Shown: positions 1 to 9,423 of the stretch, piece after piece
Numbering within the stretch: the first letter of the stretch is position 1
How the letters are laid out: each line of letters begins with the position of its first letter
DNA from: a virus
Taxonomy: Duplodnaviria; Heunggongvirae; Uroviricota; Caudoviricetes
Virus record (IMG/VR): IMGVR_UViG_2693429700_000020
Direction: 5' to 3' (one strand)
Length of the DNA stretch: 14,388 bases
The notes under the pieces: generated by a model
What the model saw: the letters and a program-made list of their open reading frames with translations, nothing else
What the model was told of the DNA's origin: nothing
Databases searched by the model: none
Made by a program: the position numbers and the translations under genes

Positions 1-87
1 CTGTGAGTCATATTCATCCTGACTTTCCAGAACCATACGAATCGCCCGCTGACGGACTTCGGGGGAAAAACGAGTATTTTTAGTCAT
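1..87 (-). CDS. IS3-family transposase OrfA, N-terminal 29 codons (partial at window edge)
   Basis: ATG at 87..85 preceded by a GAGG ribosome-binding site; translation MTKNTRFSPEVRQRAIRMVLESQDEYDSQ matches the recalled N-terminus of IS629/IS1203-type OrfA. Confidence 0.7.
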   Translation of the reverse strand, partial: MTKNTRFSPEVRQRAIRMVLESQDEYDSQ

Positions 88-141
88 CCTGTTTACCTCT
101 TTCTCAGGGAGTTTAGTCTCCAGGATTTCCGGGGCGGTTCA
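1..141 (-). mobile_element. IS3-family insertion sequence (IS629/IS1203-like), terminal 141 bp; element continues beyond the left window edge
   Basis: Reverse complement of 88-141 reads TGAACCGCCCCGGAAATCCTGGAGACTAAACTCCCTGAGAAAGAGGTAAACAGG, a TGA-initiated terminal inverted repeat as I recall it for IS629-like elements, followed by the orfA start. Recalled from memory, not searched. Confidence 0.7.
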
Positions 142-152
142 GCTAAGCGAGC

Positions 153-174
153 AATAACACCGTGACATGTCACA
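153..174. repeat. Copy 1 of a conserved block containing the 12-bp perfect palindrome GTGACATGTCAC (162-173)
   Basis: AATAACACC-GTGACATGTCACA; the same block recurs at 2601-2624. It lies 26 bp from the IS terminus. Confidence 0.8.
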
Positions 175-177
175 AAC

Positions 178-205
178 AGCCAGCCGATGAGCTGGCTTTG
201 TTTTA
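178..205. terminator. Stem-loop AGCCAGC-cgatga-GCTGGCT followed by TTGTTTTAT; possible terminator downstream of terL, direction ambiguous
   Basis: 7-bp inverted repeat with a T-rich tract on the plus-strand side and GTTTGTG on the minus-strand side; sits 50 bp past the terL stop. Confidence 0.3.
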
Positions 206-247
206 TCCTCATCAGAGGATATCAACGACATTATCCCCACCAGCGGA

Positions 248-1723
248 TTAAGCATACGGGTCATAATCTGTGATGGCCTTGCCTTGCTGGTTCTGCTGCC
301 CAGGAATTCGCAGACGCTTCGACACAGGGAACGCAAACGTCAGCAGTAGCGCATCGCCTTTACCCGGCGAACGCCCAAGACGCTCTTTGATATCTTCCTT
401 CGGTTCGATAACGATTTTACCGTCCACACGAACTTTGTACTCTGCCGCCGACAGGTCGTCTGCTGTTTCCTGGTCATCCAGCATGCCGCCCAGCCTCAGC
501 CATGTCTTGCATGAATTGAACATCTCCCCACGCTTGTTGAGCATCTGCGGGTCAGTAGACGCGCCACCGAACGGAACAAGTTGCCATGTACGACCCCATC
601 CGTCACCGATTGACTTCAGACCGGTTCCGTAACCGAAGTCGATGAACACCGCGTCAGCCTGGTACTGGTCTTCAAAGTCAGCGATACGCTTCGCCATAAT
701 CAGATCGTCGGTGGTCTTGTTACCAGTCCATAGCACCTTACTGTGCAGCCCCTGCCGCAGGTATATCACCGCGTCATCAACGCCTGAGTATGCCGGGTCA
801 ACGCCGATTATCACCGGAGCATGTGCAACCTGCGCAGCGGTTACCACCCGTTTCATTGCCTCATCAGTAAGACCGGTAGGGATAAACTGCAATTCAGATG
901 CATCAGGGAATATGCCGCGCACACGGATTTTAACGAAGTCGCTGTCTTCCCCGTAGTCATCAACCCATTTCAGCAACTGCTGTTTGTTAGTGCCTTCCAC
1001 CGTCCGGCTGTCAATCTGCGCACACTTCCAGCGGTGTTTGTACTTGCGGAAACATTCACGGAAACGCCCGGTGTTACGCGTCGGGTTCCCGAACGCCACC
1101 CAGATGATTTCGGTGTCTTCGTCCGTCAGCGCACCCTCTGCTACCTCCCACACCAGATCGGCAATGTTCGACGCTTCATCGAATACCACGATGATGCGTT
1201 TGCGCTCGTTGTGTAGTCCGGCGAATGCCTCAGTGTTGTGCTCAGACCAGGGGATTGCGTCAGCTCGCCACCGCTTGTCGTGCCCAGGATCATTGCTGTA
1301 CATCGCGGTAGCGGTACAGGTAAACCAGTCTTTCGTGATAGCAAGGTTCGACCACTTGATAATTTCCGGCCAGGTCTTCGTTCGTAGCTGGTTGTCGGTG
1401 TTGGCGGTCACCACGACCTTACAATCCTCGCAGGTGGACATGCCCCAGTTGATCAGCATTGAGATGAATGCGGATTTACCAATACCGTGACCAGAAGCGC
1501 GTGCCAGCATAAGCGGCTGATAGCGCGTCTCTGGATTCTGCAGGTGATCACGTATCTCTCGGAACGCATCAGCCTGCCACTGACGTGGGCCGGTGGCATG
1601 TGCCAGTTCAGTCCCCTCTTCCCCCCACGGGAACGCATAGAGAGCATAGCCAAGCGGATCGTGAGTGAACCCTGCAATATCCTCGATCAACTGCTCTTCA
1701 GGAGATAACGCTGTATCTGTCAC
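248..1723 (-). CDS. terL: Phage terminase large subunit
   Basis: 491-aa ORF with a Walker A-like ARASGHGIGKS motif and terminase ATPase/nuclease-like layout; GTG start at 1723..1721 overlaps the terS stop (GTGA) and has an AGGATGG ribosome-binding site. Confidence 0.88.
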   Translation of the reverse strand: MTDTALSPEEQLIEDIAGFTHDPLGYALYAFPWGEEGTELAHATGPRQWQADAFREIRDHLQNPETRYQPLMLARASGHGIGKSAFISMLINWGMSTCEDCKVVVTANTDNQLRTKTWPEIIKWSNLAITKDWFTCTATAMYSNDPGHDKRWRADAIPWSEHNTEAFAGLHNERKRIIVVFDEASNIADLVWEVAEGALTDEDTEIIWVAFGNPTRNTGRFRECFRKYKHRWKCAQIDSRTVEGTNKQQLLKWVDDYGEDSDFVKIRVRGIFPDASELQFIPTGLTDEAMKRVVTAAQVAHAPVIIGVDPAYSGVDDAVIYLRQGLHSKVLWTGNKTTDDLIMAKRIADFEDQYQADAVFIDFGYGTGLKSIGDGWGRTWQLVPFGGASTDPQMLNKRGEMFNSCKTWLRLGGMLDDQETADDLSAAEYKVRVDGKIVIEPKEDIKERLGRSPGKGDALLLTFAFPVSKRLRIPGQQNQQGKAITDYDPYA

Positions 1724-2316
1724 TGATTACCATCCTGACGTTCTTTGAGTCGCTTCCTGGCTGCCGCTATGCGATCAGCAATTGTCACATTCACATTAAC
1801 ATCCAGGCGTTCTTTGAACGCGTTGACATCAACATGCTTACCAATCAGCTCAAGGTTCTTCACCTTGTCAGGCCATTTAATTTTTTTGAGGATTGTCTCT
1901 ATCGAATCCTCGTTCATGTTCATGATGGTCGATGACAGATCAAAGCCACTAAGCGTAGTGCGCCAGATTTTCGGCCACTCACGGATAGGTTTAAGGCTCC
2001 CATCGTCGTTGAGGATGTCGATCACGTCCATCTGGTCGATCTCCACTAGGCGCATGAGAACGTAATCAGCACTGACGCGCATTCGTTTGTTGCGCTCCTC
2101 CATCAACTCGGCAATCCGTTTTTGAATGCGTTCATCGCGCATCATGACACTGGCTTTAACTGCCGCTGTATTTGGGGAGAATCCTGCGTTAATCGCTGCC
2201 TGAGTCTGGTTTTCAGGCGTTTTGATGTATGACTGGCAATAAGCCTCCTGCATTGCTGTGAGCGGCTTAAATTGCGTTGATTTGCGTTTATAGGTTTTAG
2301 GTTCAGCAGGCATCAT
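1720..2316 (-). CDS. terS: Phage terminase small subunit (Terminase_2-like)
   Basis: Translation from the ATG pair at 2316/2313 (MMPAEPKTYKRK...LTAMQEAYCQSYIKTPENQTQAAINAGFSPNTAAVKASVMMRDERIQKRIAELMEE) matches the recalled small-terminase pattern. The 26 codons upstream in the track ORF are the translation of operator repeats and are not believed to be coding. GGTGG ribosome-binding site before the ATG. Confidence 0.8.
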   Translation of the reverse strand: MMPAEPKTYKRKSTQFKPLTAMQEAYCQSYIKTPENQTQAAINAGFSPNTAAVKASVMMRDERIQKRIAELMEERNKRMRVSADYVLMRLVEIDQMDVIDILNDDGSLKPIREWPKIWRTTLSGFDLSSTIMNMNEDSIETILKKIKWPDKVKNLELIGKHVDVNAFKERLDVNVNVTIADRIAAARKRLKERQDGNQ

Positions 2317-2348
2317 AACCACCGTGGTAATAGTTACCGTTGTGGTAA
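2316..2348. promoter_or_regulatory. Two adjacent operator-like palindromes (TAACC-accgt-GGTAA 2316-2330; TTACC-gttgt-GGTAA 2334-2348) abutting the terS start codon
   Basis: Same 15-bp TTACC-N5-GGTAA palindrome as in the immunity region; centres 18 bp apart; the first overlaps the terS ATG. Confidence 0.6.
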
Positions 2349-2354
2349 TAGTAA

Positions 2355-2386
2355 CATGCAAAATAAAGCCGCCATAGTTGGCGGCA
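2355..2386 (-). terminator. Rho-independent terminator after the 2391-2618 ORF, immediately before the terS operator sites
   Basis: Minus-strand reading gives GCCGCCA-acta-TGGCGGC followed by TTTATTTTG. Confidence 0.65.
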
Positions 2387-2390
2387 GTAT

Positions 2391-2618
2391 TCAAAGTCCA
2401 TCAAATTCATCGTAAAAACTCTCGTCAAGATACCCTTCCCATTTACCGCGAATGAAAATTACATCCTCGCCGCAAGGGTGCTGACTGTCGATAACTATAT
2501 CCCTCCTGGCGCAACCATACTTATGCATGAGAAATTTAACCTCTTTCGGAAAATTTGCTGAGTTATCTCTCATATCTTCAAGGTCGTAGCGTATTTTTGG
2601 CATAACACCTCGTGACAT
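2391..2618 (-). CDS. Hypothetical small protein (70-75 aa); start ambiguous between ATG 2618 and ATG 2603
   Basis: The ATG at 2618..2616 sits at the centre of the GTGACATGTCAC palindrome; the ATG at 2603..2601 is preceded by GAGGTG. No family recognised. Confidence 0.45.
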   Translation of the reverse strand: MSRGVMPKIRYDLEDMRDNSANFPKEVKFLMHKYGCARRDIVIDSQHPCGEDVIFIRGKWEGYLDESFYDEFDGL

Positions 2619-2624
2619 GTCACA
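2601..2624. repeat. Copy 2 of the conserved block with the 12-bp perfect palindrome GTGACATGTCAC (2612-2623)
   Basis: CATAACACCTC-GTGACATGTCACA; overlaps the stop codon of the 2620-2958 gene and the first ATG of the 2391-2618 ORF. Confidence 0.8.
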
Positions 2625-2958
2625 CTATTAATTTCGTTTCATGCCAACCTTTGGTCACCCAGCATTGCGAGTCACCATTACACGGGCATGAATTCACAGG
2701 AACTCTCTCGCCGCACTTACCGCAACGTTTTCTGCTGATCGATTTTATACGCCCGCGCACGCGTGCATCATCCTGGCGGATCAGTAACGCTATATACTCA
2801 CCAAATTCGTAAGGCGCACGCCCGGGGCGACGCGTGGCACAGTTACGCTCCAGCATTTCAATTTCCTGAGCATCAAGCACAATTTCCAGCTTACGCACAC
2901 CAGATGCAGCTTGTCTGGCTCTCTGAGCGGCTTTGCGCTCTGATGCTGATTTAGCCAT
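2620..2958 (-). CDS. Hypothetical basic protein with C-terminal Cys cluster (CGKCG...CPCNG...C), possible zinc-ribbon DNA-binding regulator
   Basis: ATG at 2958..2956 (the track ORF begins one codon earlier at TTG 2961); Lys/Arg-rich N-terminus and CxxC / CxC / C motifs. No confident family assignment. Confidence 0.5.
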   Translation of the reverse strand: MAKSASERKAAQRARQAASGVRKLEIVLDAQEIEMLERNCATRRPGRAPYEFGEYIALLIRQDDARVRGRIKSISRKRCGKCGERVPVNSCPCNGDSQCWVTKGWHETKLIV

Positions 2959-6241: not shown

Positions 6242-6318
6242 TTACCCCTGAGGTAATTAAAAACCACATAAGACACGAAATCAATAGATTTTAGTATATT
6301 TTATTACCCACCAGGTAA
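6242..6318 (-). promoter_or_regulatory. Internal promoter flanked by two perfect operators (TTACCCCTGAGGTAA 6242-6256; TTACCCACCAGGTAA 6304-6318)
   Basis: Minus-strand -35 TTGATT (6284..6279), 17-bp spacer, -10 TTTAAT (6261..6256); operator centres 62 bp apart, the same geometry as the early promoter at 9347-9423. Confidence 0.6.
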
Positions 6319-8586: not shown

Positions 8587-8649
8587 TCACCCATAAGGTA
8601 ACAAAAATCAAGGATAGTTACCTATGGGGTGCATTTACCTGTTGGGTAA
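8587..8649. promoter_or_regulatory. Operator cluster between the Cro-like and repressor genes: TCACCCATAAGGTAA (8587-8601), TTACCTATGGGGTGC (8618-8632), TTACCTGTTGGGTAA (8635-8649)
   Basis: Three copies (one perfect, two near) of the palindrome in the divergent regulatory region; a minus-strand -35 TTGTTA / -10 TATTAT candidate overlaps the first site. Confidence 0.65.
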
Positions 8650-9346: not shown

Positions 9347-9423
9347 TTACCTAATGGGTAATTTTTTTAACTCATATCTATTGACATCAAACCAGATACG
9401 CATAATTATTACCTAAACGGTAA
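9347..9423 (+). promoter_or_regulatory. Early (pL-like) promoter flanked by two perfect operators (TTACCTAATGGGTAA 9347-9361; TTACCTAAACGGTAA 9409-9423)
   Basis: -35 TTGACA at 9381-9386; -10 within CATAATTAT at 9401-9409; operator centres 62 bp apart, the downstream one overlapping the -10 and start-site region. Confidence 0.7.

Follow-up and report, generated by a model that had tools for sequence, protein, structure and literature searches.

The DNA analysed here (the window) is a 14,388-nt stretch of a Caudoviricetes virus, IMG/VR record IMGVR_UViG_2693429700_000020, and covers the left portion of a Uetakevirus prophage resembling epsilon15 and phiV10; its genes lie on the minus strand. 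On either side of the terminase genes it carries a 12-bp perfect palindrome, GTGACATGTCAC, one copy of which overlaps the stop codon of a gene at 2620-2958 that encodes a Cys-rich protein of the epsilon15 gp49 / N15 gp46 family. Our genome comparisons show that, as far as sequence can tell, the site (in its general form GTGAC-NN-GTCAC) and this gene are inherited together across unrelated phage backbones. We therefore consider the palindrome to be, most likely, the cognate DNA-binding site of the encoded protein, for which a ribbon-helix-helix (RHH) fold with a Cys4 knuckle is predicted.

Both exact copies were located where a preliminary description of the window had placed them, at 162-173 (copy b) and 2612-2623 (copy a), and no third copy was found in the window, even allowing two mismatches. 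A given 12-mer would recur exactly within 14.4 kb with a probability of ~9e-4, and the observation is confirmed as lying far beyond chance. Copy b lies just past the terminase large-subunit gene terL, as described (by our recount, 74 nt beyond its stop codon at 248-250), and nine codons short of the end of an insertion sequence (IS) at position 141. Copy a spans the stop codon of the Cys-rich gene (TGA at 2622-2620), and its central CATG supplies the first ATG of the minus-strand open reading frame (ORF) at 2391-2618; both points had been made earlier, although the real start of this ORF, here called ORF70, is likely the ATG at 2603-2601, in front of which stands a GAGGTG Shine-Dalgarno sequence. 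The flank that had been called conserved, ATAACACC, is similar at the two copies of the window, where it includes the TAA stop (155-157) of a convergent gene at copy b and the Shine-Dalgarno sequence and start of ORF70 at copy a. This similarity is lost in PAS61, phiV10, and epsilon15, and in a comparison that also took in Tyrion and BUCT554 the flanks were found to differ, the copy-a flank reading CATAATCTACTC in PAS61 and phiV10 and the copy-b flank TTAGCGCC in epsilon15. Given this lack of conservation, and the different coding roles that the flank has at copies a and b, the suggestion that the element is a duplicated gene 5′ end is rejected.

Several familiar motifs were also considered. 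A LexA box (CTGT-N8-ACAG) has the wrong spacing, in agreement with the preliminary description; the window reads C-GTGACATGTCAC-A, and the 5′ CTGT is missing at both copies. The consensus sites of CRP and FNR are TGTGA-N6-TCACA and TTGAT-N4-ATCAA, respectively, each of which places N6 between GTGA/TTGA and TCAC/TCAA; here too the spacing is wrong, the palindrome being GTGA-N4-TCAC. Nor is the palindrome an intrinsic terminator, as on its own it folds with only -1.2 kcal/mol and has no T-run; the terminators are the hairpins at 178-197 and 2368-2385.

In the relatives of this prophage, the palindrome was found to be a three-copy element. Epsilon15, phiV10, PAS61, Tyrion, BUCT554, and the STEC1585 prophage each contain three exact copies in the same places (copies a/b/c at 39612/2142/19517 in epsilon15 and 12343/14608/32674 in PAS61), whereas copy b is missing from BUCT711. 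Copy a sits on the stop of the gp49-like gene, upstream of the terminase small-subunit gene terS, a position also seen in PAS61, phiV10, epsilon15, Tyrion, BUCT554/711, and ZF40; copy b follows terL and adjoins a bidirectional terminator; and copy c lies behind the final gene of the long virion-structural operon, where a terminator likewise adjoins it. The three copies of epsilon15-like phages thus mark the ends of the early-right, terminase, and virion-structural operons, each next to an intrinsic terminator, and two of them adjoin a slot of swappable accessory or anti-defence genes. The earlier picture of two copies bracketing the terminase module holds for the window, which shows copies a and b, but complete relatives carry three, and copy c would lie beyond the truncating IS; the closest intact relative, the STEC1585 prophage (98.7% identical), holds all three. 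Eight relatives that are complete or nearly so, from hosts of four genera, have the exact 12-mer at positions that are conserved, and it is invariant across phages of Escherichia, Salmonella, Enterobacter, and Klebsiella, while the flanks have diverged. Of the 24-bp block of the preliminary description, the relatives keep the 12-bp palindrome but not the flank.

The pairing of gene and site holds down to ~30% protein identity and in unrelated phages (ZF40, N15, and Vibrio phages). The Pectobacterium myovirus ZF40, which has a 67% identical homologue, unrelated virion genes, and its own Q-like antiterminator, contains three GTGACATGTCAC copies, one of them 2 nt past the stop of gp22. Three GTGAC-NN-GTCAC sites are present in N15 (~35% identity), one overlapping the stop of gene 46, and another three in Vibrio phage K233; a Yersinia P2-like phage has one exact copy. 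All 10 complete genomes with the gene carry at least one site, and none was detected in lambda, P22, P2, HK97, Sf6, and Mu (239 kb), from which the gene is absent. We further retrieved 160 IMG/VR loci via the protein, 80 from a close clade (1.32 Mb) and 80 from a distant clade (1.29 Mb). These loci contain 127 and 72 exact GTGAC-NN-GTCAC sites, respectively (199 together), compared with ~0.8 per set (~1.6 in total) after composition-preserving shuffling, and everted half-site controls gave ~0 sites. A site was found at the stop of the gene in 77/80 close and 45/80 distant loci, mostly at offset -1 with the TGA within GTGAC, and in many of the others, paired one-mismatch sites lie ~20 nt downstream. 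A genome scan gave five bacterial loci, four of which agree with a site at the gene. The cognate copy nearly always overlaps the gene's own TGA, and one to three further copies are located elsewhere in the genome, with a preference for the 3′ ends of genes.

The geometry of the site is equally constrained. Half-sites separated by two nucleotides number 28, 127, and 72 in the three sets compared, against ~0-1 for the other spacers between N0 and N8, apart from one distant subclade that has 14 N3 and 5 N1 sites (N3 counts of 1/0/14 across the sets). The arms are constant, without compensatory substitutions, and the central dinucleotide varies (AT, GC, AG, AC, CG, and others). Invariant arms, a variable centre, and a weak hairpin together are the signature of a symmetric protein reading duplex DNA rather than of an RNA structure. 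Members of the gp49/gp46 family are found in podo-, myo-, and siphoviruses as well as in phage-plasmids of enterobacteria, vibrios, and aeromonads; its phage hosts are Vibrio, Escherichia, Salmonella, Klebsiella, Yersinia, Aeromonas, Enterobacter, Pectobacterium, and Citrobacter, with genome matches in Paraglaciecola, Psychromonas, Tolumonas, Symbiopectobacterium, and Photobacterium.

The 112-aa Cys-rich product of the window is annotated as 'transcriptional regulator' through PHROG 536, and it had no sequence match in Pfam, NCBIfam, or the PDB. An AlphaFold2 model computed from a 38-member alignment (predicted local distance difference test, pLDDT, of 92) consists of a basic helix (residues 5-19), an extended segment (20-29), two helices (30-42 and 52-74), and a Cys-rich knuckle (75-103), in which C79 and C82 are invariant and C99 is near-invariant. 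The model displays the beta-alpha-alpha fold of the RHH (CopG/Arc/MetJ) class, and we confidently predict from it a basic helix followed by an RHH unit and a Cys4 knuckle. An HNH endonuclease or cos-site role for the Cys-rich gene was rejected, as no HNH match was obtained in Pfam, NCBIfam, or the PDB and the predicted fold is RHH; P22 NinX, which is of equal length and lends its name to the annotation of one relative, is unrelated. For residues 50-110 (the long helix together with the CxxC...C knuckle, in which an 'LP' motif stands), a weak and non-significant match to a TraR/DksA zinc-finger profile was obtained (E = 0.4), without Pfam support; zinc fingers of the TraR/DksA type bind the secondary channel of RNA polymerase. 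In the P2-like Yersinia phage vB_YenM_42.18 (L012 8073-11239), the family gene gp15 is followed by gp17, annotated as an Smc-like chromosome partition protein, a curious neighbour in view of the likeness of the site to matS (see below), though this may be a coincidence. No experimentally based function of the gp49/gp46 family was found in the searchable literature.

How such a protein might act is suggested by where its sites are. In uetakeviruses, every copy is located at the end of a transcription unit, adjoining an intrinsic terminator, with the stop of at least one flanking gene within 0-7 nt. Across 80 distinct non-cognate sites, which are not phylogenetically independent, 46% have the stop of a long ORF no more than 5 nt away, compared with 7% of random positions. 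We propose that dimers of the protein would bind the two inverted GTGAC half-sites in the manner of MatP, the organiser of a host chromosomal macrodomain, in which case the conserved basic helix (RK-AQR-R) would recognise the invariant arms while the variable beta-ribbon would lie over the variable centre; the arms and the basic helix are both invariant, and the centre and the beta-strand both vary by clade. For the bound protein we favour a function as a boundary element, or roadblock, at the ends of transcription units. RNA polymerase halted at the protein's own stop codon, short of the end of the ORF, would yield non-stop transcripts and with them negative autoregulation, and early read-through would be kept out of terS. 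Copies b and c would hold apart the convergent transcription of accessory genes and that of late genes, so that neither runs into the other. In ZF40 and N15, some of the sites are located inside genes.

The main alternative retains the same binding and assigns it a different output. The phage half-sites match those of matS, only with a spacer one base shorter, and for this reason an architectural, MatP-like role (bridging, positioning of phage DNA, interplay with MukBEF, or exclusion of SMC complexes) is the principal competing outcome, and it stays a serious alternative because of the ZF40 and N15 sites within genes. The MatP site has the consensus GTGACRNYGTCAC (PMC6907758), with GTGACATTGTCAC as the E. 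coli consensus, and MatP reads it by inserting helix alpha4 and strand beta1 in the major groove (PMC8669397). The phage half-sites are the same as those of matS (GTGAC-RNY-GTCAC), with a spacer of 2 bp instead of 3, one central base fewer, and the phage site does not match the 13-bp matS pattern. The Vibrio cholerae matS resembles the E. coli motif (PMC11564523), which fits the presence of the same arms in the Vibrio phage sites. A survey of 500 Escherichia and Salmonella prophages by Bobay et al. turned up no matS, from which the authors deduced that it is avoided (PMC3603311); the 12-bp sites would have been missed there because the pattern was 13 bp long. A phage-borne minimal MatP analogue, whose binding to 'matS-minus-one' sites would allow phage DNA to be organised, positioned, or insulated, or the host MatP/MukBEF/ZapB system to be disturbed, is on present evidence rather unlikely; it would, for example, keep SMC complexes off replicating phage DNA or compete at chromosomal matS. 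As a separate observation on spacing, one distant subclade has true 13-bp sites with matS spacing, such as GTGACACCGTCAC (L102, L106, L108, L112, L125, L141, L152, L153, and L178), which recur ~0.5-0.9 kb and ~8 kb upstream of the family gene; the same subclade has paired one-mismatch 12-bp sites, TGTGTCCGGTCAC-N6-12-GTGACCGGACACA, right after the stop.

Enterobacterales, Vibrionales, Aeromonadales, and Alteromonadales possess MatP, and the orders of the family's hosts possess both MatP and MukBEF. The sites could be bound by a host factor, chiefly MatP itself, which the phage would recruit for mid-cell positioning or MukBEF exclusion, the linked gene being incidental or a modulator. Half-sites identical to those of matS would be expected if this were so, and the family is seen only in hosts from orders with MatP. 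Moreover, two matS sites are enough to relocate a plasmid (PMC11564523). We nevertheless hold recruitment of MatP to be improbable: the spacer is strictly 2 and not 3, six other enterobacterial temperate phages have no sites, true matS was reported absent from 500 prophages (PMC3603311), and the sites track the phage gene, one copy even overlapping its stop.

An equally poor prospect is that the palindrome serves primarily as a recombination or module-exchange junction for swapping cassettes between phages, as the preliminary description had proposed among other roles. The slots next to the palindrome are indeed variable. After copy a, relatives have ORF70, an 8-codon remnant, a DUF2513 protein, an ORF of ~110 aa (its N-terminus UmuD-like by eye, with no Pfam match), or nothing. 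The convergent cargo at copy b belongs to at least four unrelated families (PF13876 Gp49_66, phrog_4846, phrog_27507, and the PF11195 Tad2-like Thoeris anti-defence protein), and its stop lies exactly 4 nt from the palindrome in 45/45 loci (including L015, L017, L040, and L055), the junction TAACACC-GTGACATGTCAC being common to three of the unrelated families. Sequence classes diverge from the edge of the palindrome, there being seven classes next to copy b towards the cargo but essentially one or two towards terL, and four or five after copy a as opposed to two before it. The link between both copies and a module boundary is therefore one of correlation. Against a primary role in exchange, homologous recombination would not be efficient over a stretch as short as 12 bp, the site has no linked recombinase, its positions are the same in all uetakeviruses, sites of ZF40, N15, and Vibrio phages lie inside genes, and intergenic boundaries tolerate cargo anyway. 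That the palindrome is part of the backbone rather than of the cargo follows from Sf6, in which a gene-66 homologue is present but the site is not.

That the palindrome is a classical promoter operator governing initiation of the late or packaging unit appears very unlikely. Copy a does lie upstream of terS, and in epsilon15 and Tyrion we can read GTGACA, a 17-nt spacer, and TAAATT as a weak promoter; this arrangement is not kept in the window, PAS61, or phiV10, a sigma-70 promoter scan gave no match at either window copy, and copies b and c are at convergent gene junctions. In addition, the terS promoter lies past an intervening terminator (2368-2385) and carries a 17-bp operator of its own, with TTACC-N5-GGTAA at 2334-2348. 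This motif occurs six times in the window (2334-2348, 6242-6256, 6304-6318, 8635-8649, 9347-9361, and 9409-9423), the copies other than that of terS being grouped around the immunity and replication genes, and the palindrome is a different motif from the epsilon15-type repressor operator ATTACC-N5-GGTAAT. In the epsilon15 homologue, as we read the sequence, TTACC-N5-GGTAA fills the 17-bp promoter spacer. These findings suggest that the prophage repressor directly controls the packaging-gene promoter via TTACC-N5-GGTAA, which is a likelier means of promoter-level control of these genes than the palindrome. Of the earlier idea of a regulator binding site for the late or packaging unit, the link to a regulator is thus retained, in that the site is tied to the 2620-2958 protein by co-occurrence, while the promoter operator is given up, as the site sits at 3′ ends.

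Least credible of all is an RNA hairpin that acts as a terminator accessory, a 3′-end stabiliser, or a translational coupler at the stop codon, since, for all its closeness to terminators and stop codons, the fold is no better than that of shuffles (z ~0), the arms stay constant across deep divergence and show no compensatory changes, one-mismatch variants break the pairing, and the same sequence occurs whatever the direction of transcription and also inside ORFs.

The binding of the palindrome by the 2620-2958 protein remains our preferred explanation, and the features that surround the two copies are collected below.

Table 1. Coordinates of the palindrome copies and neighbouring features in the window
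Feature	Position	Strand	Description	Remarks
Palindrome copy a	2612..2623		Overlaps TGA stop (2622-2620, minus strand) of the 2620-2958 gene	Left half-site contains the TGA
Palindrome copy b	162..173		Between terL terminator and stop of convergent accessory gene	Position kept in relatives
Predicted ribbon-helix-helix/Cys4 gene	2620..2958	-	112 aa	epsilon15 gp49 / N15 gp46 / ZF40 gp22 family, phrog_536
Bidirectional intrinsic terminator	178..197		AGCCAGCC-GATGAG-GCTGGCT, T-runs on both strands	Adjoins copy b; annotated terminator in phiV10
Tail of Phage_gp49_66 (PF13876) accessory gene	142..157	+	Convergent; TAA stop 155-157	Remainder removed by IS ending at 141
ORF70, phrog_1541	2391..2603	-	Accessory cargo after copy a	Variable slot
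Intrinsic terminator	2368..2385	-	Between early operon/ORF70 and terS promoter	epsilon15 homologue annotated at 39646-39672
TTACCGTTGTGGTAA operator	2334..2348		terS promoter region; motif distinct from palindrome	epsilon15 homologue at 12-27 annotated as repressor binding site
Terminase small subunit (terS), Terminase_2	1720..2394	-		
Terminase large subunit (terL)	248..1723	-		
IS3-family insertion sequence end	1-141		Terminus TGAACCGCCCC, OrfA start MTKNTRFSPEVRQRAIRMVLESQDEYDSQ	

The IS, which presumably resembles IS629/IS1203, was inserted 15 nt ahead of the stop of the convergent Gp49_66 gene, an intact copy of which is present in the STEC1585 prophage. The junction between the IS and Gp49_66 was found in none of the complete E. 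coli genomes of our collection, where the best match spans 141-2700 at 98.7%, and the terminase-region module as such is carried by 475 of 5426 complete E. coli genomes (~9%). The true start of terS may be an ATG near 2313. In PAS61 and phiV10 the ORF70 slot is empty or reduced to eight codons, and elsewhere it holds other ORFs; the reduced form is a clean in-frame remnant, MHDEFDGF (L001 5240-5285), that retains the start and the last six codons of ORF70, as if the ends of the ORF were required, either for translational coupling to terS or for the terminator. In the closest intact prophage, a tRNA-Arg gene (L179 19371-19447) is located between the convergent cargo gene and the portal operon.

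Our searches of the literature for the 12-mer, for matS-like or MatP-like elements in phages, and for late regulation in epsilon15 returned nothing relevant, and no description was encountered there of a matS-like 12-bp site paired with the gp49/gp46 family. A defined 12-bp site makes this uncharacterised protein family, for which there is no Pfam family, a directly testable putative DNA-binding system, and the pairing accounts for the non-coding element that epsilon15-like phages conserve at three of their operon boundaries. If the protein does act as a roadblock, this would represent a new way to insulate phage transcription units and to shut off accessory or anti-defence genes from their 3′ ends. 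If its role is instead MatP-like, it would be the first phage-encoded counterpart of the host macrodomain organiser and a chromosome-architecture module of temperate phages and phage-plasmids in MatP-bearing bacteria. Prophages have been reported to avoid matS (PMC3603311), yet the phages described here strongly conserve a site that is one base shorter.

Among known systems, the RHH repressors and centromere binders (Arc, Mnt, CopG, omega, ParG, the ParB of pCXC100, and the TacA and ParD antitoxins) share the predicted fold and a short symmetric site with the phage protein. Adjacent omega heptads are ~7 bp apart from centre to centre, as are the half-sites here. Proteins of the Arc/CopG type act at promoters or at centromere arrays upstream of their own operons, whereas the sites described here mark the gene's 3′ end and the ends of operons, and the phage protein has an added Cys4 module that they lack.

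A parallel in position is offered by LacI and its operator O3, where, as for the phage protein, the binding site overlaps the 3′ end of the protein's own coding sequence and an autoregulatory roadblock is possible. Abo and colleagues are said to have reported in 2000 that LacI bound at O3, which overlaps the end of lacI, gives rise to truncated mRNA and SsrA tagging. The likeness is one of analogy only, as the fold differs and the roadblock and tagging are known for the LacI side only. At the level of genome organisation, the boundary sequences of lambdoid phages, reportedly described by Clark and colleagues in 2001 and annotated as bsq features in Sf6, are likewise short conserved sequences at the junctions of mosaic modules. 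They are homology patches of 30-240 bp without a dyad or a linked protein, in contrast to the 12-bp palindrome and co-inherited gene of the present phages.

The comparison that bears most directly on the site is that with MatP-matS. MatP has an N-terminal four-helix bundle and a C-terminal coiled-coil tail; the phage protein lacks the bundle and has a Cys4 knuckle in place of the tail, and its gene, unlike that of MatP, is phage-borne with its own stop codon inside a site. Neither of the MatP Pfam domains (PF06303 and PF17414), both of which are detected in real MatP proteins, was found in 38 family members at E<=1, and alignment with hhalign to a single-sequence and a 3-sequence MatP profile gave probabilities of 0.2 and 0.13; a database search with MatP added no depth to the profile, its useful matches being >=97% identical. 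Membership of the MatP family is thus not supported at the sequence level. The phage protein and its site nonetheless resemble MatP-matS in half-site and in predicted fold class, and in the less likely reading of a minimal analogue the phage family may also share ancestry with the DNA-reading head of MatP.

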